From positions 39,308,001 through 39,372,000 of the forward strand of contig NC_047025.1 in assembly GCF_902652985.1 (NCBI RefSeq): 64,000 nt of DNA. Reading direction: 5' to 3'. The stretch comes from Pecten maximus. Lineage: Eukaryota. Position 1 is the first letter of the stretch. Every line of letters starts with the position of its first letter. The notes below the pieces were generated by a model that saw only the letters and a program-made list of their open reading frames with translations, had not been told where the DNA came from and made no database searches. A program made the position numbers and the translations under genes. Positions 478-62,369 of this stretch are shown here, piece by piece.

Positions 478-1844
478 CAGTGCCGTGCCCAAAGTGAGTA
501 GCCACTTTCAACGTCAAAAACGACGTTTTTGCCGTTACATCGTATTTTAATAAAATCAAAGAAATATATTTTCAAGTAATATTGCTATATCATACATCAT
601 TTTAATCGTGATCATCGTGTCCATAATCCGGAACGCGGAATACGGTATTTGGTTTTTATTTTAAGCACCGTTGTCGGTGTAAACAATATGGCGCCACACG
701 GTAGTGAAATGTCAGTGCCTGAAGCAGACGATCACAGCAATGCACGAAAGTGGAATTTCTGGACGAAAAATTGCTGAAATATTGAACATATCCCGTTTAA
801 CAATTCAGAAGTTTCTCCAACGTTTTCACGAGAGAGGAAGTTTAGGAAACAAGCCCCGAAGTGGTAGGAGCAAAATTACCACCGTCCGAAGTGACACTCG
901 GCTTTCGCGGCTGATAAAACAGAACAGACGTCAAAGTTTTCCGGATTTATTGGCATCATTTAATGAGTTAAACCCCACTGAAGCATCTGAGAGAACTGAG
1001 AGAAGACTCAGTGATTTGGATTATAAAAGATGCGCTGTTAGGAAGCGTACTACCATTTCAAAGGTGAACCGTGAACGACGTGTAAAATGGTGTCGAGATC
1101 ATCGGACATGGACAGTTGAACAAAATCGGAAAAATATCATTTTTACGGATGAAACAAAGATTGTCTTAGGTCAGGATAGAAAAGTATATGTCTGGAGAAA
1201 ACGCGACGAGAAACCGGAATGCCTTGGTCAGTATAGTGCTCATTCGCCACGATCAAATATCTCGGTCATGTTTTGGGGTTGTATAACTTTTCAAGGAGTG
1301 GGGGTATTGACCCCAGTGGAGGGTAATATTAATTCTGAGAAATATATAAATGTGTTAGATACACATTTGTGGCCAGTTGTTGCGAAAATGTTTGGAAATT
1401 CTTATTTGATATTACAAGAGGACAACTGTCCCGTCCATATGTCAAGACAGACCTGCCGATGGAAAACGGAACATAGTACTATTGAAACAATTCCTTGGCC
1501 AGCAGAGTCCCCAGACATCAACATAATAGACAATCTATGGAGATTACTAAAAATTAAACTAACAAACAGACTGAATGACATTAGGTCGAAGGCAGATCTG
1601 GTGAGGGTCGTTTCTGAAATTTGGAAGCAGCTGGACCAGACAAGAATACAGGCATTATATGAATCAATTCCAAAGAGAATACAGGCAGTTATTAAAGCAA
1701 AAGGGTGTATTACCAAATATTAACAAGTAAGTTACATTATTTTTGCTATTTTATTGAAAAAAACGTCGAAAATACAAAGCCATCTACTTGACATTGCAAA
1801 ATGACGTCGCGTAGAAGTGGCTACTCACTTATGGCACTGCACTG
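478..1844 (+). mobile_element. Tc1/mariner DNA transposon
   Basis: ~31-bp TIRs: CAGTGCCGTGCCCAAAGTGAGTAGCCACTTT at 478 and its near-perfect reverse complement ending at 1844. TA follows the right end; the left flank is AA. Encloses a transposase ORF. Confidence 0.93.
688..1723 (+). pseudogene. Tc1-family transposase, frameshifted near the N-terminus
   Basis: HTH region, GRSKITT, IIFTDETK, VMFWGCI, LQEDNCPVH and WPAESPDINIIDNLW motifs. The natural ATG at 688 (MAPHGSEM) is out of frame with the long ORF 704-1723. Confidence 0.88.
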
Positions 1845-9450: not shown

Positions 9451-9573
9451 GATCTCTCATCTTTTAGTGGAAGCGAAACGTAATTTGGTCCATCAGTCAC
9501 CTCTTGTTCATTTTATTTCATTGTCAACGTGAGACACATTCTATATAAAGATTTCTAAATCTATATATTTCAG

Positions 9574-9974
9574 GATCATCTCCAGGTACCATTGCTTTCT
9601 ACGCAATACTTACGCGACAACTGATGGATCCTGGGGTACACCAAAAAATCATTTTTGACAAGATCGTCACTAATGTGAATGCCCAGATAAGTCCCTATTC
9701 CGGTGTGTTCACGTGCATGCAATCCGGAGTTCACGTGTTCTCCTGGCAGACGCTGCTGACGGATACCCACTACGTCGTTACGGAGCTTGTACGGAACGGG
9801 GCCAACGTTGGATCGGAAGAAATTGGTAACTCCGGAACTCCTGTATCCGGGTCCTCTACTGCTGTTGTAGACCTGTCGGCGATGGATGAAGTCTGGGTCA
9901 GAGTCGCTGCGCATTCCGTTGGCGCGGACATCCAGCCTCATCTTACTACTTTGTCCGGCTTCAGACTTCCTTAA
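9574..9974 (+). CDS. C1q-domain-containing protein, exon 2 (globular C1q domain)
   Basis: Acceptor TTTCAG| at 9573 joins in frame. IAFYAIL..IIFDKIVTNV..SGVFTCMQSGVHVFSW..SSTAVVDLSAMDEVWV..TTLSGFRL is the gC1q pattern. AATAAA follows the stop. Confidence 0.92.
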
Positions 9975-11214: not shown

Positions 11215-13413
11215 TATATGGGCCGTCGTAGATTCGTGCAAATATGAAAATAACGGTAAAAAAATACACCAGAATTGGGATAGCTTTGTAATGACAAACA
11301 TAGTAGCAAGCATTTAAAGTAAATACCCAACTAATTAGCATCAGATAAACATTCCAATCGAAAGTCATTTAAAGAATATGGATACCTTTGTTGGTTGTTA
11401 AGACATGTAAGTGCCGTCAATATATAAAGACATTACCAATAGGCAGGGGAGTGTGATATCAAGTAGTATACTGTATCCTAAGGAATGTAACAATTAACCT
11501 GAGGCCATAATTACATATGGAAAGATAAATGATTAAATCATTATCGTAACATTTGTATAAAGAAGAATATATATGGGATACGTGTATTAAAAGTATTTAC
11601 TCTGGCCCCTGTAAGAATCATAATGCTGATGTATTAACATATAGTATCTACTGGGGGTACCATTAAAGTGCGAAACGAAAGCAAAACGAAACGAAACGAA
11701 ACGAAATCAAACGAAACGAAAAATGAAAACATTGAAAATTTGAAATATAAATAAATAAATAGAAAATATTAGACTTTACAAAGGCATAAGTGTCCCATTC
11801 TAATCGGTGTAAAAACAACACGCAGGAATAAATTCATCGCAATAGGAAGAAAGAAGCATGGCGAATGCTAGCCCTAATGTTTGAGGACATTTTTGTACCT
11901 GTATCTCTTTGAAAATAAAAATAAAATAAAAACTATTATCGCCTTGTTGCCTTTCAGCGGACGAGAATAGATAGAAAATTGAGTAGAATGGGAACAGTAT
12001 AGAATGAAAAAAGAAATAGTGGGTGGAAGAGAGTCGCCTGTCTAATTGATGGTGTCATTAATTTTTGAAAGCGACCCCTAGATTCGAATGGGTCCTAACC
12101 TAGCACTATTAAGTAGCAGTTATGCTTACCCTAAGAAGGTAGAAGAGAGAAGACCCTACCCTGTGGATTTGGTTTATCAAGGTTTTTGACGTCCATCTAA
12201 ACACCTAAAAAATAAGAAATATTAAATATTAGCCTAAAATATCCTATCCTCTGGGCCGGCGTTATAACACCAAAAGACCGCCGAGGGATCTTTATCGTGC
12301 AAGTTACACATTCTCACGGGACACCATTTCAAGTCCTATCAGACGGACCTGATGTCAGTCGTAAACGGTTCATTTAAGTACTAGTGCTTTATTTTTGTTT
12401 CCGGACTTGTAAGACTTCCTTCGATGTCTGATTCAGGATATTGTATATGATCAGTCCATTATGTATAGGCATACAAATCGCGCAGTGTATTGTGTATATC
12501 AAACATGTTATTCTACCAAAAGTAATCACAAATACTGGTAAAATATCTTCTTATCAATAAATTTATAGCCATAAACTATATACAGTATTCCTTACCCACC
12601 TGCTAATTAAAAATCACTGATAGCTTACTAGATTTACTTTCAGTTAACGTAGTTCAACTTGCTATTGATAGGCGTTATTTCAAATATCCAGATGAAAAGA
12701 ACAAGTTGGTTTTACGAAAATCTCCGAGCAAAGCTGAAATAAAATAAAATATATTCCTTTTTCAACCATAGGATATCCACTTAACTAATCCAGTCACAGG
12801 TGCCTGACTCGTTTTTATAAAATAATAACATATAGAGTACATATAAATGAGAAAGGTTCTGAACTCCCCCAGGCTTGAAATCTGATGTATTTATTTCTAA
12901 GTACCTTAGCTTCGGTTGTATTGGGTGGATTTTTTCGAAGTAGGACTTAAATTGAAGAGAAATGGTCAATCTTTAAAATAAGCCATAACATGTTGTCGAT
13001 TTCTCGATATTAGTTTACGAAATCGGGCGTGAAACTTCAAAATCCCCTCGATTTTGTTTAGTCGGACAAGTTGACGTATCGGGGTCACCACACTTTGACT
13101 CTATTGGACATAGCTTTAAATACGAAGTCCACGGGTTAATCAAGAAGTACGCTTCATCAGATCACCGAATGCAACTTTCATATACACTTACTTGGTGAAT
13201 ACAAGCACCCTGTCGACGGCCCCAGGACTTTTTATGCATACTGATAGCAGATTTTCCACCTGAGTAGCCATTTTGTGCCAGCCGAGGTAAGTTTTGAAAC
13301 AAGCAATCTGATTGGTTAAACACATTTCTATCGATTTTCGTAGTCTCTCTAGATTTATCCGATCGTGAATAGACAAAAATTTGAAACTTTCCGAAAACAA
13401 CAAAATGTAAACA

Positions 13414-14407
13414 ATGGCGGCACATGTGCATTTGAATCGAAAACAAACAGAGGCTTACAATTTGGTATTAGATGGGCACAGTGTTTACATAGGGGGATTC
13501 GCCGGAACAGGGAAAACGTTCCTTTTAACAGGAATCGTTGATAAGTTGAGATCAAAGGGGAAGATTGTGAACCTGACATGCACGACGGGAATCGCTTGTT
13601 CAGCCTACCCTAGCTCACTCAACGCTACAACAGTGCACAGATTTTGTGGTATGGAGGATGGCAGGTATGCTACTGATGATTTAGTGTCCATGATTTTGCT
13701 AAATCCAAAATACAAACAGACACTTTCAAGAATTAAATGTACTGATGTTCTTATTATCGACGAGATATCGATGCTTAGTGCCAAATTGTTTGGACAGTTA
13801 GCTGAAATATGTTCTTTAAGAGATCCTCATCACATATTCGGCGGTATCCAACTGGTACTTTGTGGCGATTTTTACCAACTTCCACCTGTGCCAAACAGTT
13901 TGTATGAGGATGATGGTGAATTCTGCTTCCAATGTGACATATTTCAGAAGGTAATTTCGCATACAATTTTTCTGACTGATGTCATCAGACAGTCAGAGGC
14001 AAGACTGATTTCCGCAATAGATGAAATTTCCAAGGGATGTCCATCACAGCAAACCTGTGACCTTATGAGCATGCTGCAACGCCCATTAATGGATCAATCA
14101 ACAACAAAGCTGTTCTCAACTAACCATCAAGTTGATGAATACAACAGACGGATGATGCTTTCAACTGCTGGGGATATCACAGAGTACCGTGCCAGCGACA
14201 CCGGGGAAGAGCGAGTTCTTCACAAAATTTTAGCCATGAAAGTTCTCTGGCTGAAACCTGGTTGCCCAGTGATGCTGCTGAGGAACATAACGGATCGTCT
14301 CTGCAATGGACTTGTTGGAAGTGTCACATCAGTTCATAAAGATGGTCCAATTGTGAAGTTCCCCACTGTAAATATTGAGATGAAGATTCCCACTATGTCA
14401 TTCTCAG
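13414..14407 (+). CDS. PIF1-like SF1B DNA helicase, exon 1
   Basis: GFAGTGKT, TCTTGIA, TTVHRF, LIIDEISM, FGGIQLVLCGDFYQLPPV, LTDVIRQ and PVMLLRNI..LCNG motifs. Donor G|GTAAAT at 14408. Confidence 0.92.
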
Positions 14408-15042
14408 GTAAATGGAGTACAATTTTTTTTTAAAACTTTAACTTGTGTAAACCTTAACATGGCTACATACTAGTACACACAATGCAGACATACATTATTT
14501 AGTCAACTTTAACGCAAAATAAGTATTGATGCAAATGTTTTTTTAAAAGTATTATATATATACGTAATGTTTTGAAAGAAAAATTGCCTAATGATATAAC
14601 ACTTAATTGTTTTACAAATAATTCATTCATTGCTGCATATAGTCAGTGATGCTTCATATAAATATATATATTTTTTTTTATCTTTTCTCAGTGTTAATTA
14701 ACTTATAAATTGTTAAGAATTTGTGAGGGTATTGAGCTATTTATCTATAATATAAATGATTATAAAGGATCAGAGGTAAGTTTTGCTTCAGTGAGTCAAT
14801 GTGTCATGTAACGGAAGTAGGTCACTGTCACCTACATTTTTGCATTTGACCTAAAACCATACCATTTTATCTATATACCAGGTTCTTGTCACTACTGCAT
14901 ATGCATGCATATCATAGTTTGGTCATAGCAGGTTCACTTTGGATTGTTCAGCTTTAATTTGCTGTGTAAAATCTAGTGTTGAAGCATACACAACATGACT
15001 TTGTCTTTTACATTGAACAAATTATTTTTTTTTCATTTTCAG

Positions 15043-15148
15043 TTTTCAACCCACGGGATCAGAGAAATATTGCAACTAGAGACCAGATACCACTGAAGTT
15101 GGCATATGCCATCACCATTCATAAAGCACAAGGCATGACCTTAGATAG
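15043..15148 (+). CDS. PIF1-like helicase, exon 2
   Basis: TTTTCAG| acceptor. In frame: VFNPRDQRNIATRDQIPLKLAYAITIHKAQGMTLD (motif V). Donor AG|GTAATG. Confidence 0.9.
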
Positions 15149-15871
15149 GTAATGAATAAAGTTCAAGGCAGATGTACATGTTTGTCTGGTTAAGTGTGAT
15201 TTCATGTGAATTATACATAGCATTTTACATAACAATACCTTCATGTAATTATATCTTGTATAAATAAAGTTGAAACTTGTTAAACTGAACTTGCATAACT
15301 TGAATACCCAATTTATTTCCAAATATTGTGTTATTCATGATCAAATTTACAATAACTCAAATAAATCACTCTCTTTGTATCCATAACATTACAACTTGGT
15401 CGTTGGCCCACAAAAATGGTATGTCATGACTCATGTACCATAAGAAAGTAACTGTGACCTACATTTTGACTGTTGACCTCCATCACAGAATTTCAATTAG
15501 GCTTGTCAGGGCCCAACTACCTTCACTGTTTCTGCCATCCTTGAGTCATAGTAAGGTTGTGTAAAGTGACAAAAATTAGGTCACTGTGACATATATTTAT
15601 ACATTTGATCAAAGAAAATCTCTTCATTCACAATATCTTAGGGGACTGTTAGTGGATTGATTAATCTTGTTTTCTAAAAAAGTTGTGTAGGAATACTGTG
15701 ATAATTGACAATGACATGTAATAGTTTAAGGAAATTGAACACATCAACCATGACCGCATGCACATATGTTTTCATCTACAGTTGCTTTGCCAAATAATAG
15801 GTATTTTGAAGGTAAATTATGACACATGCACACAGACAAAATATTAATTGCTTGTGAATATGTGTATGCAG

Positions 15872-16069
15872 GGTCGAGGTTGACTGCAGTGGGGTATTCA
15901 AGCCAGGCCAAATTGCAGTGGCAATAGGAAGAGCAAAGACCACAATGGGACTTCGTGTCATCAACTTCTCTCCAAACCTGTGCATACCCCCACCATCTTC
16001 TATTCAAGATTGGATTGATCAGCCATCAACACCAATTTCAGAGGATCTTTCTTGTTGCAATCATAAAAG
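15872..16069 (+). CDS. PIF1-like helicase, exon 3
   Basis: In frame: RVEVDCSGVFKPGQIAVAIGRA (motif VI variant). Donor AG|GTATAA. Confidence 0.85.
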
Positions 16070-16477
16070 GTATAACACTACAGGAATGTTGGGTTTATAA
16101 ATACAGATCCTTTTAATGTTACATCATCAAACCATCCTAAAGCAAGTACATTTGTGAAATGTGTAATAAGCTCTATAACACAATGTTGTTTAGATTTAAT
16201 TCTGTTCACATTCACTAACAAGTTTTACTCCATCTGATTTTACACAAAATGTATTCGCTGTAGATTCTGTTTAATCTGAAGTACTTATAGAATAGTATTC
16301 GAATTAATAGGTATATACCATCTAGTTGTTACGGTAGGTCACAGTTAGTAGGCCTCTTAGATCAATTAAAATGTTTTAATGTCATGTCTTAATATTGGTA
16401 ATCTGTGTTGTATGACCTACCTAAATTCTCAGTAATTTGACCTCTTTTATACCACACAATAATAATAATAATAATAG

Positions 16478-17246
16478 GTAAGAGGCCAAGGAACTTCATA
16501 TTGGGCCTGTAGCATACTGGGATGAAGTGCTACCAAGTTTGTTCAAATAATTGACCTTGACCTTCATTCAAGGTCACATTGGTCAAATAGGCTATAATCT
16601 TCAAACGACTTCTTCTCAATAACCAAGAGGCCCGGGGACTTGATATTGGGCCTGTAGCATGCTGGGGTGAAGGGCTACAAAGTTTGTTCAAATAAATGAC
16701 CTTGACCTTCATTCAAGGTCACATTGGTCAAATAGGCTATATTTTTCAAACAACTTCTTCTCAATAACCAAGAGGCCCGGGGACTTGATATTGGGCCTGT
16801 AGCATGCTGGGGTGATCAAGGGCTACAAAGTTTGTTCAAATAAATGACCTTGACCTTCATTCAAGGTCATATTGGTCAAATAGGCTATATTCTTCAAATG
16901 ACTTCTTCTTAATAACCAAGAGGCCCAGGGACTTGATATTGGGCCTGTAGCATGCTGGGGTGAAGGGCTACAAAGTTTGTTCAAATGAATGACCCTTGAC
17001 CTACATTTAAGGTCACAGGGGTGAAATCGGCTTAAATCTGTAAACAATAATTTTGCGATAGCCAAGAGCCTCCTAGACCAGATATTAGGCCAATAAAATG
17101 CTGGAATGGTGGACTAGAAAATTTATTAATATGAATAAACCTAGCTTACTATGATAATCAGCATAGTATCTGTAGAAATGACCTCAATCAACTTCAAAGT
17201 TGCTGTAGAGCCAGGTGAGCGATACAGGCCCATTGGGCCTCTTGTT
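16478..17246 (-). mobile_element. Non-autonomous Helitron/Helentron-type repeat with internal ~135-bp tandem units, in a Pif1 intron
   Basis: About 3.5 copies of a TGACCTTGACCTT..AAGGTCA-containing unit. End sequence CAGGTGAGCGATACAGGCCCATTGGGCCTCTTGTT resembles common bivalve Helitron-like repeats. Confidence 0.6.
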
Positions 17247-17422
17247 CTTGGGGTACTTTGGATTTCCTCCACCTCCCAAACTTGGTATATCCTTATAAAT
17301 AACCCAGCTGGTTGTTAATAGGATGTAAATTGAAATCAAACCAGAACTTGTTTGGGTTCATGACTATATAATGGTAACATGTTATGTTAAATGCCTTGTG
17401 TTTTTAAATGTTGTCTTGACAG

Positions 17423-17510
17423 TTTCAGATTGTATGAGGACTGTTACAGTGTGTTAAATTGTCAATTAGTTGAGGTTTTTATCATAAAGGAGGGGAACAA
17501 GGAGGAAAAG
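17423..17510 (+). CDS. Putative PIF1-like exon 4
   Basis: GACAG| acceptor, open in the required phase 2 (SFRLYEDCYSVLNCQLVEVFIIKEGNKEEK), donor AAG|GTACAA. No motif support. Confidence 0.4.
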
Positions 17511-20500
17511 GTACAATTTGAAAAGCAATAGCTGTTAAAATTCCTATTCATTGTTAGTGGAAGAAAATTTAACTGTAGTATATTTGTTGTAGTCATATTC
17601 TTCATATAGTCTAAATAAACATTTCATGTTTTATTTGTACACTCAATAACCAAGAAGTCACAAGCTGGAATGAAGGGCTATCAACATTGTTATAATGGAT
17701 ACTCTTCCTCATCCTCCATTTTCTTAATAAACTATTAGGAAAGAGTGCATGTGCAGAAAAGTATATCTATATTAATTTATTTCTTGTTTTTTCTTATATA
17801 TATAAAAAGGCAACAAATAACAGATAGTCATTATATTTGTTAATTATGGAGGATGTGTTCAAGTAGGATGGTTTTTTTTAAAGAAAAGAGTGTTAACGTT
17901 GCTAGTGGCTACTTTGGTAGGTATATAATACTAGTTAATGATTCTGGAAAGAATTTGTACTTAAAGAGATCTGTATGTGTTTGTTTTTGTTTGAATTTAT
18001 GTGACCTCGAGCTCCATGGTCATACTGTCAGATTGTGTTAGATTGTGTTAATTTTTTTTCTGTGGGAATAGATATGTTGTAGTGTGTTATTTTGTACAGA
18101 AGTTTTAAACAATACAAGCTATCATGCATCTGTTTTCAGTAGAATCTTTGAAGTTCAATGACTTAAAGATGTTGATGGTGCTTGAAGACCCACTTTCAAA
18201 CATATACATTGGTCAATTGTTTAAATCTCCAAAATCAACAGGCCAAGGATGATGATAGTTAACCTGTTCATACAAATGAATGACATTGAACTGCTTTCAG
18301 TTCACCTGGTGTGAAATTTAAAGACCTGTTAAATTGTTGACCAGCAATTTCTAGTTGAGGTTGATTGATATTGCCCATAATTGTCATATACTAATAAGTA
18401 GATATATAAATTATAAGTGAATGTAAAAGAATGTCCTGATATATATACATTTTCATCATTCCAATTCCAGACCTTCTTAGCCTAGTGACTCATTGGCCAT
18501 TACTATTTCATTCTTGAACCAACCTAATGTTATTTGATGAATGCATTTCAAATATATTTGTCTCAAATTAAAGTTTAAGTCATGTCTTTTAAAAAACATT
18601 CCAATACCAGAACATTAAAAAAAGAATTGTTTATTTTGTTTTGAAGTTATTTATCAACATTTAAATCATCATCATCATCATCATCTAAGTGATTTTACAT
18701 GTACTCAACTTATCAATAAAACATCATCAATATAATATTAATTAATTAAGTGTGTCAACTCACCATGTGATCACGGTCATTTTGAAGGACCTTTTGATGA
18801 ATAACAGTCTTCAAATCAGACTGACACCACTTTTGTAATCAGTATAAAGTCTAATTTCATTATGTCACTTCGTTTAACGGGTTCGAAATTTCCCGCAATA
18901 TTTTTCCTTTCGGATATTCACGATCGGATAAATCTAGAGAGACTACGAAAATCGATGGAAATGTGTTTAACCAATCAGATTGCTTGTTTCAAAACTTACC
19001 TCGGCTGGCACAAAATGGCTACTCAGGTGGAAAATCTGCTATCAGTATGCATAAAAAGTCCTGGGGCCGTCGACAGGGTGCTTGTATTCACCAAGTAAGT
19101 GTATATGAAAGTTGCATTCGGTGATCTGATGAAGCGTCCTTCTTGATTAACCCGTGGACTTCGTATTTAAAGCTATGTCCAATAGAGTCAAAGTGTGGTG
19201 ACCCCGTTACGTCAACTTGTCCGACTAAACAAAATCGAGGGGATTTTGAAGTTTCACGCCCGATTTCGTAAACTAATATCGAGAAATCGACAACATGTTA
19301 TGGCTTATTTTAAAGATTGACCATTTCTCTTCAATTTAAGTCCTACTTCGAAAAAATCCACCCAATACAACCGAAGCTAAGGTACTTAGAAATAAATACA
19401 TCAGATTTCAAGCCTGGGGGAGTTCAGAACCTTTCTCATTTATATGTACTCTATATGTTATTATTTTATAAAAACGAGTCAGGCACCTGTGATCCAGTAC
19501 TTAAATATTGTTTAACACATATCCAGAATTATTCAGAGTTCATCAAAGTTACAGAAATGGAGTCGTCCTCTGATGCTTCCGTTCTGTCTACACTCCCGAC
19601 ACCTTGAGCAATACGGGTATGCGAATCGCACCTTTCAAGTACAGCAATTTTCCCGGGACACTAAGTTTTCACGATCAGATACACACCCGGCTTTCCTACC
19701 ATAAAAGGAGTGGCTTACAATCACCTTTGCCACTTGATTTTAGATCGAGCGTGCACCAATACACTACGCGATTTGCACGCATATAAATCGTGGACTAAAC
19801 ATATTATATGAATATAATGATGTTTTTTTATATTTAAAAATTGAGTGAATATTGTGATAAATTCATTCTTTCCTTTGTGTTGTTTTAACACCGATCAGAA
19901 TGGGACACTTAGGCCTTTGTATAGTCTAAATTTTTATTCTTTTCGTTTGATTTCGTTTTGTTTCGTTTGATTTCTTTTCGCACATTACAGGTACCCATCT
20001 ACTGGTAAGTGTATGTGATCGAATCGACTGCTGATGCTTATATTAAAAACAACATGTATAAAGTATATGTCATTATTTCCACGATACGATGCAAGGGGGA
20101 TAATTCTCGTCAAACACGGGTTTCTTTTGTATTTCAAACCGATTGTGTAAATGTTAAACTGAAGTATACATTTTTTATACTTTTCTTATCGTGAGCCCTA
20201 TCTATTTTTATTTTTACACTTTTTTTCAAAATAGATTGATGTAGAATATTAAAGATAGAAGGAAACAAAAATGAACTAACACTGTGAGTATTTACCATGG
20301 CTAAGTTTGTAAGCTCGGAGGATACTGATTGTTAAGTATAAGATTGTATATGAATACAGGGGGTCTGCAATGTTTACCTTTTTATCATTATTGACATCTT
20401 GGACATTTATTACTTATTTAAGGTAACAGTAAACTACTTCAATACTGCACAAGGATCTAACATTTTAAACACAGACATAATAACAACAAGTTTGTTTCTA

Positions 20501-26318: not shown

Positions 26319-28310
26319 TTAATTGATGGAGCTTAGTAATTCATTCCAAAACAGGTTACGCCCAGTCAGATCATTTGTCCACTCAATCGTAGACTTATGC
26401 TGAAGAAGGACACTAAGTGGTTCTGACATCTGATGTACAGAAACTCTCTCCAGCATTACCAGTATAAGAGTCGAAGGTCCTTCCTCAAGAAACCTACTCT
26501 GAGCCATCAACAACTCAAATTTACACCACTCATTGGAGGTAAACGAATTCGACAGAATCAAAATCAACTTCCTACTTTTTCGCATATTTTCAACAATATT
26601 GTCTGCAATTAATTTCCCGGGATCAAAATCCCTGTCGTGTAAACAAAGTCTGAATTTCTGTTGTTTTTCAAGGAATGGCATCAGTTTTGTCAACACCCAT
26701 GTTCGATCGTCACTATTGTAAGCCACAAACGCATCAAAATGAAAATTATCCTCCTCTGATATTCTCTTGTATCCCCTTCGTACACAACACAGGTACACAT
26801 AATACCTTATGTGCCATCTATATTTGTAGAGCAGAGCCCCTATAACTATGATCACAAGGAGACACACAGATAAAACAACAGCCATCACTACTAACGGATG
26901 TAGACATTCCATGGCACTAGGGTTATACTGATCCACCAGTCGACTTCTCATTTCCTGTGGCGATTCACAGTAGTACATGTCTGGGTATTGTCTTAGAATC
27001 GCCTTGTTTTCAGGGATCCATTTCCGTCTGAACCAGAACAACGAACAGGAACAGACAAATGGGTTGTGAGAGAGGTCCAGCATTAACAGATTGTTCCATA
27101 TACGTGTCGGAAAGGAGTCGGCATTAATGTCTGTGATGTGATTCAAGCCAAAGTCGATATAACGCAGCGAATTTGAAGAGGGGAATATATTGTTATCCCA
27201 TTTGCTAAAGAGATTTCCAATAAGAGTGAGGGATGTTAGGTTTGGAGCGTGTTCCAGAAATCTTTCAGGCAGATTGCTTATACCTGCAAACTTCAAGGTG
27301 AGATTCCGGAGATTTTTCAAAGGAGCGATAAAGTTTCTTAGATATTCAGTGTTGTAGTCTGGAATTTTGAGCTGAATAGTTGTGAGGTTTGTAAGGTTGG
27401 GTGTATTCTGAAATAAGTTCATCGAATCTTTGCCGAGTTGGAAACTCTGTGCACTTCCTACAAGTATCATTTCCAGTGATGGATGACTAAATGCCATTAG
27501 TTCTATACTCTGGAGACGACCGATAAAATCCATCGAGAGTTTCCTCAGTGATGTAAGATTTGCAAAGGTGAAATTTTGGATGTCTCGAAGTGGCAGGTAA
27601 TCCAAAACCAATATACTTAAATTCGGAAAACAATGACCATTCGTGTGAAATTCTAATAAGTCGGTGAGGAAGTTCTTTGATACGTCCAACGATTCCAAAG
27701 CGTATTTCCCCCCAGACGGACAAGACAAATCTAGGTTCGTTAACTCGTTACCTCTGAGGGATAGTGTCTTTAATGTTTCAGATATGTTTTGAAACGATAT
27801 CTTTCGAATCTGGTTGTCATCGGCGATGAGAGAACTCAACTTTGGAAACATATTCGAAACTTGTGCGATATAGTTTTCTTGAAAATTATTATCAGATATA
27901 TCCAGGGTTGTAATGTTGAATAATGGTCTTGCCACGGAAAAATCGGACAAGCCTACACCTCTTATAACTAATCCAATTAAGTATTTTAATTCCGAGAAAG
28001 CGTCTTCACTGATATCATCTATGACACAGTAGCTTATATCGAGGTTGCGGATTTCCAGATGTTTAACGTTTTTAAATGTGTTCTTCGAGACAGTATTAAG
28101 TGTACTGTGAGTATACAGGATTGTTGTGATGTCCGAAGGCAATGCTGGAATGTAGGCACTGTGTATTCCGGAACAGTTGGCGATGTGGTTGGTACATGAA
28201 CAACCGTCAGCACACAGTTGTATTTGTGATCGTTCAGGGTATGGTAGGGCCGTTACAATTACACACAATATGCTGGTACTCCATAGTGCAACATACAATA
28301 ATATATCCAT
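26319..28310 (-). CDS. Toll-like receptor (single-cysteine-cluster type, intronless CDS, 663 aa)
   Basis: ATG at 28310 (MDILLYVALW signal peptide), LRRNT (CADGCSC), many LRRs, LRRCT (NPFVCSCSLFWF..YYCESP), TM helix, and TIR domain (FDAFVAY, LCLHDRDFDPG, FWNELL). Confidence 0.96.
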   Translation of the reverse strand: MDILLYVALWSTSILCVIVTALPYPERSQIQLCADGCSCTNHIANCSGIHSAYIPALPSDITTILYTHSTLNTVSKNTFKNVKHLEIRNLDISYCVIDDISEDAFSELKYLIGLVIRGVGLSDFSVARPLFNITTLDISDNNFQENYIAQVSNMFPKLSSLIADDNQIRKISFQNISETLKTLSLRGNELTNLDLSCPSGGKYALESLDVSKNFLTDLLEFHTNGHCFPNLSILVLDYLPLRDIQNFTFANLTSLRKLSMDFIGRLQSIELMAFSHPSLEMILVGSAQSFQLGKDSMNLFQNTPNLTNLTTIQLKIPDYNTEYLRNFIAPLKNLRNLTLKFAGISNLPERFLEHAPNLTSLTLIGNLFSKWDNNIFPSSNSLRYIDFGLNHITDINADSFPTRIWNNLLMLDLSHNPFVCSCSLFWFRRKWIPENKAILRQYPDMYYCESPQEMRSRLVDQYNPSAMECLHPLVVMAVVLSVCLLVIIVIGALLYKYRWHIRYYVYLCCVRRGYKRISEEDNFHFDAFVAYNSDDRTWVLTKLMPFLEKQQKFRLCLHDRDFDPGKLIADNIVENMRKSRKLILILSNSFTSNEWCKFELLMAQSRFLEEGPSTLILVMLERVSVHQMSEPLSVLLQHKSTIEWTNDLTGRNLFWNELLSSIN

Positions 28311-29464
28311 CTCGTTAGTGCACCTCGCGGATCTAGGCACTTACAACGACATACGCTCTTGTGCTGGCATATATTGTGAAAAACTAAATTATATATATGC
28401 GTTTATGTGTGTGTGTGTATAAGATAACATTGCAAGGAAGTAAAACTCGTCATGATGACGATTTACCAACTACGAATCCAAGATACCAGCGTATCTATCT
28501 TAGAAGGAAGTGTTTGTGTTCTCGGCCATGTCCTCTTCCTAAGGACACAGCACGCGGGAACACAGTTCAATTTCTTTGTCGACAGGAAGTAAATAACTCT
28601 TTACAAGTAATATTAACACCTATCTAAAACGGGAAAGTATTCAAACTAGATACTGTCAGTTTAATCGTTAGTTAGTATGTAGTGCATTATACCATAGTAC
28701 AGGGCCGTGTCAGAGTAAACATAATATCAGGTGGGCTTTTATTGGTATCAATAAACAGCTATTCTGTGTAAACACTGTGTAATAACACGAGCGAAAATCA
28801 ATTCCATGTTTATATTTCATTTTATCTTTCATTTTATACCTGGTGATCAAATGTTTTCGGCTTTGTCTCGAATACCCGATATAGTTTATCTCTGTGTATT
28901 AAAAATGGAGTCTATATTGTCCTGTGTTAATGCAATAGTACATATTGCTTCTCTTTATTTATCTTATGCTATACACTGGATTTGTCTTCCTCTGAAATGT
29001 ATACCCTGTGTATAGACAGGTGTGACAATGTCACTTCCTTGTTCTGTATTACACTTTACATAACATGTTGGGTAATTGGGGAAGTGATGGCAGTAAACCG
29101 TCTTCCTGTATATTGTACCCTTTAGAATATGGTTTAATTTTCATTCATACAACTTTATCATCAATCAATAGTATAATTATTTGCTTTATCAACTGATACA
29201 ATTAATTGTATCCGAATCAATATGTTGTGCAGTGCTGATGGATTTGGATAAAGGAAATTATCCTATTTATTTTTATACAAATTCATTGTAAACTTGTGTA
29301 TTTATTTTACAATTGCGAACAAAAATAAAGTCAACTTTTAGTACCACTCTTGTTGGCCTGGATGGAAGCGTGCGAGGAGTCTTACTAAACACATGTGGTG
29401 GGGCAGATTACCCTATCCCTTTATACGTTAGAGATCGAACCCTGACCGCCTAGGTAAATGGCAA

Positions 29465-30942: not shown

Positions 30943-31431
30943 CTAAACAATTGTAATATATTCTGATGAGTTAGGCTGAAATATATCAGTCATGGTATCA
31001 TTAAATACAAAAGAAACACATACATCACTGTAGTTAAGCTTCTGGTACTGTGTCATTGCCATAACTTGTAAAATATAATATTGGGAGGTACGTGCTCTTA
31101 TGTATGAAGTAAAATTTAAATCTTGAATAGATGGCACTGTTTGGATGGTCAATGAATCGGTAACACAAGGTCCGAAGTCTGTCATGTTGAACGTTACAGC
31201 ATACATACTGTAGTCTAAGCGGTACCTTGTAGCGTTCAAATTATGGCGTTCAAACACCACCGACGAATACCCTGATTCTTCCAAGGAGTTGTTCAAGCAT
31301 ATACAGTAACTAGGATAATCAAATGTGTAGTCACCTAGATAGTAAAGTTGCTGGGAATTTACAAGCACTAGTATCAACAGTGTCATTGTGAGTAGCTCTA
31401 CCCCTCCGGTAGTATTGATTAGGACTGCCAT
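30943..31431 (-). CDS. Uncharacterised secreted 4-Cys protein, paralog 1 (162 aa)
   Basis: Signal peptide, then YYLGD..YPSYCIC..SVVFERHNL..YSMYAVTFN..FGPCVTDSL..VPS..YSDVCVSF. About 7 N-glycosylation sequons. Homologous to four other ORFs in the window. Confidence 0.88.
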   Translation of the reverse strand: MAVLINTTGGVELLTMTLLILVLVNSQQLYYLGDYTFDYPSYCICLNNSLEESGYSSVVFERHNLNATRYRLDYSMYAVTFNMTDFGPCVTDSLTIQTVPSIQDLNFTSYIRARTSQYYILQVMAMTQYQKLNYSDVCVSFVFNDTMTDIFQPNSSEYITIV

Positions 31432-31619
31432 TTCTTGATTAGTTTGAATTCAATGATGATGATTAGTATGACTGATCTTCATACACAGGTTTGAATTCCT
31501 AAGTAACGGATATTTTTAACAATTCCATCATTTCTTTGAGTTCGATTCATTAGCGCGAGAAAGCATTTTTATTCCTTCACTTGCTCTCATTCGTAAGTAA
31601 TAGGAAAGGAATCCTTAAT

Positions 31620-37044: not shown

Positions 37045-37485
37045 TCAGGTTGATGTTGAATTAAGGACGTATGATACACATGCCTCGGTTAGAGATGACG
37101 CCTGCAAATGTAGAAATGCCAGCTGTTGAAGCATAGTCTGTTGTGTTTCCATTTCGGAACTGGATAAGTCCAAAATTGTCATCGCAGGGAAAGCTGTCGT
37201 CTGAATAGTGTCCGTAACACAGTAGCCTAATTGTTTATCAATGTTGAATATAACACTGTATAGATTATACTCTGCTTGGTCCTCCGTCGTGTTGAGGGTA
37301 TCTCTTGTAAATACCGCAGATCCGCCATTTTCCTCTGAAGAAGAACTGCTGCTAGAATCCTGTTCGATACATATGCAGTAACTTGGAAGACTGAACCTAC
37401 TGTCACCAAGATAGTATGTTGATGAATCTACTAGCAGGATTGATGAAAGTACCACGACGGTGACGGTATGAACGTCCAGCATCAT
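37045..37485 (-). CDS. Uncharacterised secreted 4-Cys protein, paralog 2 (146 aa)
   Basis: Signal peptide, then YYLGD..LPSYCIC..SAVFTRDTL..YNLYSVIFN..LGYCVTDTI..FPA..TEACVSY. Confidence 0.88.
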   Translation of the reverse strand: MMLDVHTVTVVVLSSILLVDSSTYYLGDSRFSLPSYCICIEQDSSSSSSSEENGGSAVFTRDTLNTTEDQAEYNLYSVIFNIDKQLGYCVTDTIQTTAFPAMTILDLSSSEMETQQTMLQQLAFLHLQASSLTEACVSYVLNSTST

Positions 37486-38194
37486 TGCTCCAATCTCAGT
37501 GTCCGCAAGTATAGTCTTGTCCTATCGCTCCAGATATATCATCTGTACACTAGACAGAAGGTTGGTGTGAGCTTTATGTCATAACAGACAACCTATAATC
37601 TGCACTAGCCTGTCTATAGGTTTTATTAATGAAAGGAAATTAATCAATTTTGTATTCACTGAACCGAGGCCGACTAAACGAATGAATAAGTACTACACAA
37701 GAAAAGCTATATTCATGTAGTGTTATTATAGTTTTTGTTTGTTTAACTGTAATTACTCGCTCATAAATGTATGGCCGGTCGACAGCAATTATTTGCAACG
37801 TGTACATGATAAGTATTTCCTAAGAATTGTGTATTCTTCGGTCCAGTATTCATAATAAGCATTGTATAGGCTAGTCTCAACAGTTAAACATCGATTTCAA
37901 TACTATTCAGAGATAGAAAAAGTTTAAAAGTCAAATATTTATACAAGACGTGAGGGTTAAGATTTACCTGTGTTATCGATTACCTGTGTTTGACTTCCCC
38001 CCAGGCCTGTCTTATCTGGTAGAGTCGGCAGTATGTCCTCATTTACACTATTATCTATCAGTAAAACAACCATAGGGAAGTTTATATCATATGTCCACAC
38101 TTGTCTCTCGATGTTCTGTACTGGATAAGTTGACGATTGGACAGGAGTAAAGCCCTCCGTGGTTGTGTCACTGTTTTCTATATAACACATCACT

Positions 38195-41953: not shown

Positions 41954-42388
41954 TTATCCCACTTTAACTGTTACATTAAACACGTGTAAGTAGGAAATAC
42001 ACACGTTTGTATAAGAGAGAGAGCGCAGTTGAGCCTCCGCCATAGCCTTCAGCATGCCGCCTATTGACGTTATGTTAATCTTCGTTATATCCACACTGTG
42101 GAGGGAAGGAAAGGATTCCAAGTCCAAGGCGTCCGCAACACAAAACCCTAACGCTGAGGAGACATTAGAGACCACACTGTACAATCGGTAGGCCGTCCCT
42201 GACGAAGTCGTGTTGAGTGTGTCCCGCTGAAACAATACCGAAGATGGTTGTCCAGGTTTATCATTCTTCAGACAAATACAGTAACTTGGGTAGCCAAGTC
42301 GTGGATCACCCAGAAAGAAATTTCCAGACGTTACAACCGCAAGAGAGAAGAGGCCGACCACCCAGGTAAGTGTTATAACCCTCTGCAT
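41954..42388 (-). CDS. Uncharacterised secreted 4-Cys protein, paralog 3 (144 aa from ATG 42388)
   Basis: MQRVITLTWVVGLFSLAVVTSG signal peptide, then FFLGD..YPSYCIC..SVLFQRDTL..YRLYSVVSN..LGFCVADAL..FPS..YTNVCISY. Confidence 0.88.
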   Translation of the reverse strand: MQRVITLTWVVGLFSLAVVTSGNFFLGDPRLGYPSYCICLKNDKPGQPSSVLFQRDTLNTTSSGTAYRLYSVVSNVSSALGFCVADALDLESFPSLHSVDITKINITSIGGMLKAMAEAQLRSLSYTNVCISYLHVFNVTVKVG

Positions 42389-45300
42389 CCTGTTGTTTCG
42401 GGAATCACGATGATATGTTATGGACACTTTTCGATTCTATGCTCTAAACAACACTCTGTCTCTCACCTGCATTCTTCTAACAATAGATCCACTGCTTTAA
42501 AACAAAATGGCGATTGTTCGAAACCTAGTGAAACCTTTCTAATAACGGGAATCTCTGATAAGAATGTTTGAGGTATCGATCTTTTTTATCCATCCCGACC
42601 TAGGGGATAGATCATACGTCATTTTCCGATATTGGGGAAAGATATTGCATGGTAATATTGACGTGTAGAATAATCTCATCAAATAAAATACCACAGGAAG
42701 TCTCAGTACATATGTTATACACACTCTGGTTTATAATCCAAAACTAAACAGAAATCTCGTAAAAATTGTCATCGCCATGAAGTGATTTAAACATTCAACT
42801 TGCAGAATGACATGCAATTTGAAACACTTACAAATATCCACAATACGTTGTGAAGCAGGTTAACCTTGCCATGAAAACGAGAACCTTCTTAAATGAAATA
42901 GTTTCTTGATATTTTATAAATCACCCAAAATAATTATATTTTTTTTTTGTAACAAAATTATCGATATCGTATCTCATACATTATAAATAAATCAATTTAA
43001 TATCAATAATGCAAAATTAAGAAGCTTTGTATGGGTGTCAAGTTGACAAGACAGGTCCAGTGATGACTTTGATATATGGTCCTACAGTAAACAGTGGTCG
43101 GGGATATAGACAGGGGTCATTCTTGGTGTGGCCGGTTCAACTATAGATAAAAAAATATCATCAGTACTATGTCTAGTGCTAGTGTTGACTTTATATGAAT
43201 TTGATGAGCTTTTGAAAAATCAAGGACAGGATATTCTTATATTTCTTAAAACGGACGTTGTATTGAATTCCTTTTCAGAGTAATTAAGATCAATCACGTT
43301 CATTAGATTTAAAAAATTCAAGCTTCAAATTCAAATGATAAAAATCATCAATTTTGAATCTCTTGATCCCGAAAATCGAGACCACATTTTAACTGTCTCC
43401 TTGATAGGTACGTGGCTATGCCTCCAAATGAAGCATCTCATTAATTGATACTTGTAATATTGCTTGATAACTCAGGAAAAGCTACCAACATATATTCCTT
43501 TTTTAGACAAAGTTAATTTTCTGTATTGTATATTTTCAGGTTACCGTTTAACTATTTAGGAGGAGCCTTTATCGTTTTATTTGAACCCTAAACATCACAA
43601 AATGCGTTTTTAGACAATGTGTTGTTACTGATTTGGCCTGGTAATCATTTCTTTCTACTACAAATCTCGGTTTATTTAAAATCAAGGTTGCGGTCGTGGT
43701 ATTGTGTACTGAAGAAGTTTTAGTATCATAAAGTGGAGTTAAAGTCATTAAAGGGTACCATGAGGGAGTCCAATCTTGAACTAATCGCGTTATTTAGAGT
43801 TATATTTACTTACAATGTATAGCAAAACTTGTCTGTATTGTTACTGCATACCTTTAACGTTGAGGCATGATAACATTTAACCGGATTCTCAACGTCATCC
43901 TATTGATTACGTTATATATATCCGTTAGACGCTGGTTGTGGTACAATATGGATTAGTGGTACTTGTTCAGATTTAAACTGTAGCTCTATCAAGGCGAGCA
44001 CTAATAAACATCCGAGACAAGTAGTATAATTCCGATAGGTGGCTAGCATTCGTCATTTAGGAAACAGGTTGTGAAAAATTACAGAGAAGGCGAAGAAAAA
44101 GAGAACTAGTCGGAAAAACACAAAATATGATTCTAGAAAAACATCATGAAGAAGGAAATATAGACAAATATAGCATAAAATTGGAAAGACGACAAATATA
44201 TCATCAAATAGACAGAAATTATTAATATAAATTTATATTCTTACAAATAACCTCAGAAAAGAAAAGATACCTCAGTAATGTTTTTGGGGTAGCACATTTA
44301 CCATAAACAGAACTCAAAATTCTTGATAATATTATTCAATATATATCTAAATAAAGATGTAGCTTTACTTAAAATCAGGAATCAAGTAGACACATGTAAT
44401 TAATCTTGGATTCTGACAACAAATATCACAAAGAAGTACTAGACCATGTTATAAACTATACACTAATAGTTTTACATCAGGAAGACAGAGCAAAATACAT
44501 GTATAATCTTGTATAAAATTGAACAAAACTGCTGGATTGAATAAATAAGTACCAAACCAGTAGTTTTACAAATAACCTAAAATACCAAGTAGAGTGAATT
44601 AAGTAGTATTAAAGCAATAGTTTCAGAAATGATAAGAAAGGGAACAAAAAGCAAATTTGAAAACGCACTGGCACATTTAACTTTAAGACCAAACACATTT
44701 ATAGGTGATATTTTGTTTGTGTATTTATGAGGACTCACGCCAACGTTGTACTCGTTAATTACTTGTAAATAACCAACATCTCCCACACCACTTAAACATG
44801 TGACATGCTAATCGTGTGTTGTCGATATCAGACTTGTTAACAATTGGTATTTCGTCCACACAAAAAATCTTAGCCAAAGGGGGACAATCGCAAGTATGTT
44901 ATCTTATGTGACTGATAATTGGATGCAGCATAAATGACGTAGCCAAATTTATGAATATTCTTCCAACTAATCCTTCCAAAACAGAATCTCCAGTTTTAAT
45001 CTTGTGTCGGCGAGAAGCTGTCCTACAGGTTGGATGATGAGCACGACATGCGAAGTTTTAATGGACTTTGGTTTGTAACAGTTTTTGGGGGCGAAGGTTT
45101 CAATTATATTATTTTCCATACTTGTTTGTAAAATCAATACATGTATAGACCATTGTAGTTATCAATGAACCAAATTCGATATGATGTAACGATTGTCAAT
45201 ATGAACACATGGCTGGCATTGTTTGTTGTTCTGTGGTTTTCTTTGAAATGAATTAGGGTGAAAATGAAAAATACCAACCTTCTATGATTCTTTTTCAGAG

Positions 45301-46947: not shown

Positions 46948-47370
46948 TTAGAATGGAACTAACAAGTAAGCTATACAGGCATCAGTGTAAGTTAACGAGG
47001 GGAAATGTAACAACGCCACAGCCCCGAACATGTCCTGTCGGGTCAGAATCGTCGTGTTATTGGTAGCCAGGGGTTTGAAGGACGGGAAATGTCCACGTTG
47101 TAAATATTCAGTGACACAGTAGCCCAGGTTAGAGTTGATACTAAATGCTATACTTAATATAGTATATGCTGTCTGAGGCACTGTTCGGTCCAAACTGTCA
47201 CGCTCAAACACTATTGAAGTTGTATTTGATTTCCTGTTTGTCTCCTGACAGATACAGTAACTTGGGTACTTGGATGTTGTATCTCCTAGATGGTAGGTTA
47301 TTGTCTCCACGCCAGGACTGACCATCAGGGTAACCCATAGGGAGACCATGGACATAGCCACGGTGTTCAT
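46948..47370 (-). CDS. Uncharacterised secreted 4-Cys protein, paralog 4 (140 aa from ATG 47370)
   Basis: Signal peptide, then YHLGD..YPSYCIC..SIVFERDSL..YTILSIAFS..LGYCVTEYL..FPSFK..YTDACIAY. Confidence 0.88.
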   Translation of the reverse strand: MNTVAMSMVSLWVTLMVSPGVETITYHLGDTTSKYPSYCICQETNRKSNTTSIVFERDSLDRTVPQTAYTILSIAFSINSNLGYCVTEYLQRGHFPSFKPLATNNTTILTRQDMFGAVALLHFPSLTYTDACIAYLLVPF

Positions 47371-47429
47371 TTTGGTCACTATACACAAATCTGGCCTAAC
47401 TAGGAGGGCATCTGAAACAAAAAGAGTAT

Positions 47430-48062
47430 ATCATCATAATCACCCAGCTATCACCACCACCCTACCACCAACCCATCATAATCACCCAGCTATCACCGCC
47501 ACCCTACCACCAACCCATCATAATCACCCAGCTATCACCACCACCCTACCACCAACCATCATAATCACCCAGCTATCACCACCACCACCACCCTACCACC
47601 AACCCATCATAATCACCCAGCTATCACCACCACCCTACCACCAACCCATCATAATCACCCAGCTATCACCGCCACCCTACCACCAACCCATCATAATCAC
47701 CCAGCTATCACCACCACCACCACCCTACCACCAACCCATCATAATCACCCAGCTATCACCACCACCCTACCACCAACCCATCATAATCACCCAGCTATCA
47801 CCGCCACCCTACCACCAACCCATCATAATCACCCAGCTATCACCACCACCACCACCCTACCACCAACCCATCATAATCACCCAGCTATCACCACCACCAC
47901 CACCCTACCACCAACCATCATAATCACCCAGCTATCACCACCACCACCACCCTACCACCAACCATCATAATCACCCAGCTATCACCACCACCCTACCACC
48001 AACCCATCATAATCACCCAGCTATCACCACCACCACCACCCTACCACCAACCCATCATAAGC
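47430..48062. repeat. ~42-48-bp C-rich minisatellite
   Basis: Unit ATCATAATCACCCAGCTATC(ACC)nCTACCACCAACCC. Confidence 0.9.
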
Positions 48063-60928: not shown

Positions 60929-61327
60929 TCAGTACGGATAAAGTATGTACGCTATACATGCGTCTGTGTATGACAGAGTCGTAAACTGTATTGACGACAC
61001 TGCCCGGAACAGGTCCTGGTGTGTTTCTAAATCTGTCGTATCTACGTCCTTAAATGATGGGAATCGTTCTCTTAATAATCTTTCCACCACACAGTATCCC
61101 AGGTCGGCGTCAATGCTGAACGTGACACTAAACATAGTGTATGACAAGGCGGGGGTCACTCCGCTTAATGTGTCGGTCTCGTGAACTATGGACGCCGTAT
61201 TACCGGAAGTACTGGTCACCTGACAGATACAGTAGCTCGGGAACGGAAATTGCGTTGTTCCTAAGTATGTTGCGGGCTCCACTGTCGAACATAACACCAC
61301 CACCGCTATAATAAGAAAGTTGACCAT
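60929..61327 (-). CDS. Uncharacterised secreted 4-Cys protein, paralog 5 (132 aa)
   Basis: MVNFLIIAVVVLCSTVEP signal peptide, then TYLG..FPSYCIC..SIVHETDTL..YTMFSVTFS..LGYCVVERL..FPSFK..YTDACIAY. Confidence 0.88.
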   Translation of the reverse strand: MVNFLIIAVVVLCSTVEPATYLGTTQFPFPSYCICQVTSTSGNTASIVHETDTLSGVTPALSYTMFSVTFSIDADLGYCVVERLLRERFPSFKDVDTTDLETHQDLFRAVSSIQFTTLSYTDACIAYILYPY

Positions 61328-62369
61328 AATACCGTCATTCTAAAGCCCGGATGTTTTCTGTGAACTCATTAGTATGTCGGGTTACTGTACATCTGAAACG
61401 AAAATAATAAAATATCATATTGTGGCTCCATAAACAACGATGTTTAATTTCACATTTTATTATTGACATTATAATCAGAAGTATATACCCACTCTGATCA
61501 ATTTCATCAATTTTGAAGAAAAAAATCATTCTGAGATTCAGCATGTCTTTTCCCCAATCGATTGAGTTAGTCGTGAAATAATGGTCGCCTTTGTGGTACA
61601 CACCAGTAAATACATAGACAAATTGGCCAAGTGTGGCTAAATCTGTGTGATCCTATAGAGTATTAAAATCACATTGAACAGGAGACATTTTGTCAGTTAT
61701 ACTTTTGATTAGTCATTGAAGACAACACAATACATTTTTCAGATTAACCTCGAATTCTCATTCCACTATATTACGAAATTATTTACTACCACTTTCGATC
61801 ACATCTTTACATATATACATGTTTTACTGTGATGTAGTCATCAATTCAAAAACAAAAAGTCATCAGTATGTTCTGTAAGATATTAAGAGTGTCGCTGACT
61901 TCTTACCGTTAGATATGATACCACCCCAGTGTTTCCTGTACGATCCTACACTCTGGTAGTAACCTGATGAGGTATGAGACACACCACCAGCCTGTTTTAC
62001 TAGTATAAGACTGATGAGGTATGAGACACACCACCAGCCTGTTTTACTAGTATAAGACAGTTGTCCTTGACGTTCCCTTATTAACGTCCACATGTATTAT
62101 GTATACGGACCAAATTAAACATAATGAGATCTCTAATAAAGAGACTGACTTTGGCCCATTACTTATATCAGCCGCCGTTTAAAACTCCTACATGGAAAGC
62201 TTGAGCGGATATCTTACTGGTAAATCTAGCATTCAATAGAATAAATTTAAATACATCGATCAAATAAGAAACCGTCTGTCAGCCCACTTTTAATAACTTG
62301 AAAGTTAGACGGAATATTAACATATTAACCTGTTGTTGAATACATCAACTTTAGGTAATATGAGTCTAC

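Follow-up and report, generated by a model that had tools for sequence, protein, structure and literature searches.

Why would a transposon with long terminal inverted repeats (TIRs) and a 7-bp target-site duplication (TSD) carry a gene for a Pif1 helicase? The question is raised by an element at positions 12795-19491 of a 64,000-nucleotide stretch of the Pecten maximus genome (contig NC_047025.1, forward-strand positions 39,308,001 to 39,372,000; hereafter the window), which a preliminary description had taken for a P-like cut-and-paste transposon whose only recognisable cargo was an intact Pif1 gene. Our results show that the copy in the window is young and non-autonomous, a dead derivative with an internal deletion, and that the transposon lineage behind it is real, widespread and recently active. 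The anatomy of this lineage, namely two convergent genes of which one encodes a transposase core without a C-terminal domain (CTD) and the other a partner composed of Pif1, a middle domain and a PHD finger, can be accepted with very little doubt. We consider it likely, at a lower level of confidence, that this is a split P transposase, in which the CTD subunit carries the Pif1 helicase and the PHD finger and the two proteins form one transposase with a built-in helicase.

The ends of the window element had been correctly recognised. Its 577-bp TIRs, the left one starting with CACAGG (12795..13371, plus strand) and the right one ending with CCTGTG (18915..19491, minus strand), differ at 3 of 577 positions, and the perfect duplication ATCCAGT is found on both flanks (12788..12794 and 19492..19498). 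The element is hosted by an older, unrelated interspersed repeat (12300..19990, the limits being those of the flanks tested) with copies 70-85% identical, and in 18 of 19 paralogues of this repeat both flanks are joined around one copy of the target (the remaining locus, L293, aligns differently). Therefore, the duplication of ATCCAGT was made by the insertion. The genome-wide search that had been proposed showed the TIR to be multi-copy: it returned 616 first-look candidates, of which 40 were scored, mostly palindromic 1,057-bp miniature inverted-repeat transposable elements (MITEs) about 95% identical to the window TIR. Among the MITE copies with both ends, once one spurious 102-bp pair had been dropped, the TSD was 7 bp in 19/20 and 8 bp in 1/20, and the second base was T and the sixth A at 34 of the 42 target sites counted by strand. 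The internal sequence adjoining the right TIR was found only in the window and on contig C10, where a sister copy lacks the left end and is 98.5% identical to the window element; the window copy and its relatives are referred to below as family 1.

The comparison with this sister copy explains what the window retains. The Pif1 gene starts with an ATG 43 bp past the inner end of the left TIR, rather than 43 bp inside the repeat as previously described, and three predicted exons follow on the plus strand: exon 1 with Walker A, Walker B, motifs III and IV and the 2B domain (13414..14407), exon 2 with the motif V region (15043..15148) and exon 3 with motif VI (15872..16069), which ends on a phase-2 donor. 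The GT-AG boundaries, the in-frame joins and the retention of all helicase motifs from Walker A to VI had thus been well seen, and the exons fuse into 432 codons (Pfam PIF1, E 2e-28); the estimated length of about 460 aa was too high, as even reading through the unused donor gives a frame of 442 aa. Nor is the gene intact: a fourth coding exon was sought at all AG acceptors in the window and none was convincing, and the in-frame acceptor for the exon 3 donor is deleted in this copy and present on C10. Indeed, at ~16464..16479 a 16-nt filler replaces 5,673 bp of the sister copy, confirming the suspicion of a deletion derivative; the deletion ends within a 145-bp tandem repeat that is a remnant of a common nested repeat (16480..17032). 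The lost segment, retained on C10, held transposase exon 2 on the minus strand, frameshifted in C10 (Pfam PF21787, E 5e-15), and on the plus strand the last partner exon of about 610 codons, present in C10 as a frame of 620 codons, which extends the Pif1 gene and ends in a PHD finger. Exon 3 is predicted to be spliced in phase to this CTD-PHD frame, the intron of 3,288 bp between them enclosing the transposase. Reciprocally, a predicted 17-nt transposase mini-exon (M-T-V-I-T plus a split Trp codon) persists in the window at 18764..18780 on the minus strand, in frame with C10 transposase exon 2 across a 5,609-bp intron that encloses the PHD exon, so that the two genes are both convergent and interleaved. 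Apart from this, tblastn detected no transposase or CTD remnant of note in the window copy, the best match being at E 0.10; Pif1 as the only cargo of the family is contradicted by the C10 transposase. From their positions, the left TIR likely carries the promoter of the Pif1-CTD-PHD gene and the right TIR likely serves as that of the transposase gene. No RNA data set was listed among those matching the Pif1 exons. Logan contigs from 6 of 23 runs covered families 1 and 2 (the latter described below) at low and patchy depth, introns included, with no splice joint of the genes of either family, a result that speaks neither for nor against the predicted junctions.

The transposase belongs with the P superfamily. 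A model of it (pLDDT 79.8) retrieved the fly structures 6pe2/6p5a at E 8e-18 with a target TM of 0.77-0.80, the next fold following at E 8e-4, and Pfam assigned PF21787, together with PF21788 in homologues; a sequence search against the PDB gave 0 matches. The modelled core is a P-type RNase H fold with a helical insertion of the GTP-binding type, in which the D-D-E triad is kept as DE(M/C), DG and SDxxE, the Asp lying three residues ahead of the Glu. These motifs align with those of other P-like transposases, one truncated model lacking the last of them. The idea that this is a cut-and-paste lineage of P-like type which brings its own Pif1 is borne out by this fold match, by the sister copy and by family 2. 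The longer copies with a THAP-bearing P transposase that had been anticipated were found as far as the P transposase is concerned, and no THAP domain was matched by Pfam in the transposases. An upstream THAP exon was considered and rejected, the in-frame first exon being five codons long. At the N-terminus, there is some weak resemblance to an RFX winged helix (1dp7, target TM 0.71, E 0.1; Pfam E 0.02-0.04). By its core and its TSD, the lineage is placed in the P superfamily, not as a canonical THAP P element. At the other end, 44 of the 46 homologues with the last motif stop 58-86 residues past the catalytic Glu, and a profile of the partner's middle domain matches 0/56 homologous transposases, the single-ORF protein P0239 described below being the exception. 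Within the GTP-binding insertion, an F-D-x-x-N motif kept in helicase-less relatives is replaced by I-x-x-F-R and a following 13-residue gap in the Pif1 lineage; this motif would correspond to F443/D444/N447 of the fly enzyme (numbered as in PMC7776569), and the use of GTP may differ in the Pif1 lineage.

The association of this core with a helicase is not peculiar to family 1. Family 2, whose Pif1 is 51-52% identical to that of family 1 (nonsynonymous divergence dN 0.45, synonymous divergence dS saturated), comprises seven copies about 98-99% alike, six of them full-length (10.9-16 kb; in two of these, the frame of one gene is changed) and one a deletion derivative. They are bounded by 605-bp TIRs with CACAG termini like those of family 1, and the TSD is 7 bp in 4/6 and 8 bp in 2/6 copies with both ends; duplications of 7 or 8 bp are common to families 1, 2 and others. 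The 793-codon transposase frame is unbroken in five copies, and the mini-exon pattern recurs both here and in a complete foreign element (L128). RefSeq models of Pecten maximus, 99% identical to family 2, share the predicted exon join, these models being predictions themselves. Further families of the same genome lack these introns and encode the partner as a single open reading frame (ORF), which in one of them comprises 1,219 aa with Pif1, middle domain and PHD finger, tail to tail with the transposase. Elsewhere, an intron of the helicase gene houses the transposase, after residue ~200-250 in L118, L121 and L122 (C5, C17 and C9) and after residue ~35 in L266-L267 (C12). Altogether, the transposase occupies four positions relative to the partner, three of them within introns, an interleaving that tandem duplication followed by reciprocal loss would produce.

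The two genes are linked across families and hosts. A Pif1 match lies at most 12 kb from the transposase at 33 of 39 genomic loci, which are hand-listed distinct transposase loci leaving out a group at ~29% identity, and C10 adds one by DNA match. Among metagenomic and GTDB loci fetched by the transposase, 27/79 carry partner matches, all on the opposite strand, and the fraction is 16/19 for foreign loci of at least 5 kb. Many Pif1-bearing families at 35-60% identity share the layout. Transposase homologues were named from Mercenaria, Dreissena, Pinctada, Tegillarca, Mytilus and Littorina, and partner homologues from scallops, oysters, mussels, abalone, Solemya, the hemichordates Ptychodera and Glandiceps, and Holothuria. 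Contigs with these transposons (L201-L204) were retrieved from Sedimenticola metagenome-assembled genomes; their gene structure is split and intron-like, which points to animal host DNA in these bins. A metagenomic JGI contig encodes P0239, a single 1,877-aa ORF with the order core, Pif1, CTD-like domain and PHD finger, Pif1 occupying the linker, which is either the ancestral unsplit form or a re-fusion. Another ORF, P0216, is an unbroken 1,048-aa Pif1-CTD-PHD frame on a 3,439-bp Logan contig; it clusters with an Argopecten protein within a clade of intron-bearing families and may be a spliced transcript. Finally, the Pecten genome also holds split P-like families without a helicase (L257-L262 and L270, on C5, C13, C18, C4, C6, C17 and C3361), in which a core of ~960-1,000 codons faces a separate CTD-like ORF of 360-380 codons, matched at E 3e-4 to 4e-4 among 107 ORFs. 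In one element of this P-like, helicase-less kind (L261:5264-10000), a segment of at least 2,265 bp is duplicated in inverted orientation, the two copies being 99.8% identical.

The partner protein begins with a helicase of superfamily 1B in which motifs I-VI and the 2B domain are all present. Over 36 rows, the key residues are conserved to 93% (Walker A Lys), 97/100% (Walker B Asp/Glu), 100% (motif III Gln) and 100% (motif VI Arg), the motif VI Tyr being replaced, mostly by Gly, in the transposon lineage, and the helicase, which is of Pif1 type, is predicted to move 5'-3'. No match to the Rep family (HUH) was obtained in the partner proteins. The closest PDB matches of the PHD finger are those of Alfin-like, Pygopus, TAF3 and DIDO proteins, which we take to be H3K4me readers. 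The identity of the middle domain is the more delicate point. One partner homologue matched Pfam Tnp_P_element_C at E 7e-4, and the domain was therefore submitted to a fold comparison, in which its model (pLDDT 91.7) found as best of 48,161 chains residues 617-734 of 6p5a_B (118/118 aligned, root-mean-square deviation 2.8), with a Z of 9.3, a level at which chance matches of helical models may occur. On this basis, the middle domain is predicted to be the P transposase CTD, the very domain that the core lacks. Its profile was built from many of the partners it scored, and its 32/34 positives are therefore partly circular, which does not apply to the negative counts.

Several observations, besides the modest Z, weigh against a split P transposase with a built-in helicase. 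Foldseek retrieved nothing at E < 0.001 with the middle domain, 6p5a was not among the best 60 matches of its sequence profile, and the 25 commonest Pfam families of 70 partner members did not include Tnp_P_element_C. No complete family 1 copy was found, the sole other long copy (C10) lacking the left end and having a frameshifted transposase. Helicase-less split P families with open frames exist in the same genome, so that the helicase is dispensable for some, and a joint clade of the transposon and Helitron helicases was not rejected (see below). Apart from these observations, an ESM Atlas search for the middle domain gave no usable match, a PF12596 search of the genome recovered neither a locus nor its own controls, and a complex prediction of the core with the middle domain, which scored 0.00 in a run without alignments and with an uncertain partner fold, yields no verdict. 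The moderate CTD match is supported by three facts of organization: the core lacks exactly that domain, P0239 keeps the corresponding order, and the helicase-less families present a CTD-like gene facing the core. Therefore, rather than the loose cargo or separate helper element proposed at first, Pif1 is fused to a CTD-like domain and a PHD finger and is likely part of a transposase subunit.

Regarding its origin, the partner helicase matches human and yeast PIF1 at E ~1e-53 and the Helitron helicase of Helraiser at 6e-13. For the phylogenies, 8 ORFs lacking a helicase match and 4 proteins whose core was partial or carried long insertions were set aside, and subsets of 132 rows plus host PIF1 served for a quick tree (46 rows) and for the IQ-TREE and approximately unbiased (AU) analyses (37 rows); the rows labelled cellular include unannotated, perhaps viral proteins. 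The transposon helicases branched as one clade, with 37/37 rows at 0.916 in FastTree and 16/16 at 95/94 in IQ-TREE, the base of the group being unresolved in the quick tree, and the Helitron helicases formed a separate branch in the best trees (100/100). Thus, Pif1 groups neither with host PIF1 nor, in the best tree, inside Helitrons, answering the phylogenetic test suggested in the preliminary description. A grouping with host PIF1 and one other animal-type PIF1 was rejected by the AU test (p-AU 0.013), and host PIF1 is a separate multi-exon gene (C4:25651001-25670764) with an N-terminal PH-like region. A joint clade with Helitron helicases had a p-AU of 0.108, and the middle domain was detected in 0/20 ORFs taken from Helitron-like loci. 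As the host grouping is rejected and the Helitron grouping is not, the donor is ancient and may have been a Helitron or a virus.

How such an enzyme could work is suggested by the fly strand-transfer complex. According to PMC7776569, the CTD sits there on a flexible linker, between the RNase H and GTP-binding domains, and holds the looped-out single strand of the transposon end, the route by which the end DNA reaches this shape being stated as unclear. With the CTD on such a linker, a split at the linker would be structurally easy, and, as Pif1 lies just ahead of the CTD, the helicase would sit on the gapped ends. In the mechanism that we propose, each of the identical TIRs would drive one gene inward, and the partner CTD would dock on the core as in the fly enzyme, placing a 5'-3' helicase at gapped, partly single-stranded ends. 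There, it could unwind the folded end DNA and, after strand transfer, strip the complex and thereby allow gap filling, the PHD finger perhaps tethering the complex to chromatin. End unwinding and clearance of the complex is the helicase role that we favour, but only tentatively, as it is slightly less probable than not; roles other than end remodelling or donor gap repair are less likely, about as much so as donor gap repair. A bolder version, in which a widespread two-subunit P lineage of animals with an altered GTP site would equip its C-terminal subunit with an ATP-driven Pif1 motor and a PHD finger that reads chromatin, and would use the motor for self-replicating transposition through end melting and full-length repair of the donor site, is in our opinion improbable.

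The same split enzyme could also serve donor repair, the CTD delivering the helicase to the excision break, where long-tract repair from the sister chromatid would restore the 7-16 kb element and raise its copy number; we hold this to be a doubtful possibility. The elements are long, and filler deletions like that of the window are what aborted gap repair is expected to leave in P elements, although deletion derivatives and many MITEs still arise. In the fly, according to 10.1101/554550, long repair synthesis over the 14-kb gap left by P excision is promoted by PIF1, an effect confined to the absence of POL32, and the fly CTD is described in PMC7776569 as departing with the transposon ends instead of being kept at the donor.

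A different proposal sees in the partner an accessory factor rather than the missing part of the transposase, with a middle domain that is merely CTD-like and a helicase that unwinds TIR foldbacks or forks stalled at long palindromes. The moderate fold match, absent by Foldseek, is compatible with it, and so are TIRs of 300-600 bp and MITEs that are near-perfect 1-kb palindromes. Yet homologous cores are always without a CTD, the top match among all chains compared is precisely the missing domain, the fused P0239 preserves the order of core, Pif1 and CTD, and in the helicase-less relatives a CTD-like gene of its own is found at the equivalent place, likewise convergent with the core, which makes this proposal quite improbable. 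We give next to no credence to the idea that a MITE-like element captured host PIF1 or a Helitron helicase in a single event. It could draw on exon 1 of the window copy being single-copy in the genome and on the Helitron grouping withstanding the AU test, but the many divergent families sharing one layout, the single clade of 16 transposon helicases, the distinct host gene with its rejected grouping and the lack of the middle domain in the Helitron-like ORFs speak against it; a recent capture of this kind is refuted by the number of families and their own clade. The split P transposase with its helicase-bearing CTD subunit thus remains our preferred explanation.

The rest of the window contains features of other kinds. 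A Tc1/mariner element with an open 346-codon transposase frame lies at 683-1720 (plus strand) between inverted repeats at 477-507 and 1815-1845, an exon with a C1q domain at 9549-9971 (plus strand), and a single-exon ORF of a Toll-like receptor, with LRR and TIR protein domains, at 26322-28340 (minus strand). Five paralogous exons on the minus strand (30946-31449, 37048-37521, 41957-42436, 46951-47430 and 60932-61339) share a signal-peptide-like start and a Y-C-I-C motif and are separated by long minisatellites; a Pfam search of one of them gave no match.

Among eukaryotic transposons, Pif1 has been treated as the mark of rolling-circle Helitrons, whereas here it is conserved in a cut-and-paste element of the P family, fused to the predicted counterpart of the domain that grips the single-stranded transposon end in the fly. 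If the enzyme is indeed naturally split, with a detachable motor, the shaping of P ends and the disassembly of the complex become testable by point mutation, and the Pecten genome itself contains young copies that are intact. Counts of "genomic" PIF1 genes are also distorted by the lineage, whose proteins bear the annotation PIF1 in mussels, abalone and a sea cucumber, and the repeated interlocking of its two genes is unusual. No description of a P element with Pif1 was found in the literature searched, a search outside which lie Repbase (which may well hold such families), Dfam, subscription journals and supplements; the accessible portions of PMC12730594 and PMC11417382 do not mention such a lineage.

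Compared with the Drosophila P element (87-kDa transposase, 6P5A/6PE2) and vertebrate THAP9, the lineage shares the RNase H core, the GTP-binding-type insertion, the D-D-E triad, the 7-8 bp TSD, the CA...TG ends, the internal deletion derivatives and a CTD-like domain encoded in the element. It differs in having an RFX-like winged helix in place of THAP, an altered F-D-x-x-N in the insertion domain, TIRs of 300-600 bp instead of the 31 bp of the Drosophila P element, and a CTD that is joined to Pif1 and PHD in a gene of its own, convergent with that of the core. The helicase-less families L257-L262 resemble it in a core that ends after the catalytic Glu and a CTD-like protein supplied by the facing gene, whereas in the Pif1 lineage a complete Pif1 and a PHD finger form part of this protein and several families have interleaved genes. 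Galileo elements, which are P superfamily foldback elements with one THAP-bearing ORF and no helicase, have in common with it the long TIRs, the CA ends and a palindromic target of 7 bp whose second base is T and whose sixth is A. The AcademH helicase is a RecQ, a PHD-bearing Academ variant exists, and the AcademH TSD is 9-10 bp, in contrast to 7-8 bp here. AcademH and KolobokH are likewise cut-and-paste DDE transposons with TIRs that encode a DNA helicase, as given in PMC10045372 and PMC9587614, from which the KolobokH helicase appears as a RecQ, in contrast to the SF1B Pif1 found here, the transposases being unrelated and without a split CTD. Finally, Helitron RepHel proteins also contain a transposon-encoded helicase of the Pif1 family (PMC8788227), whereas the lineage described here has no HUH Rep, possesses TIRs and a TSD, and forms a separate helicase clade in the best tree.

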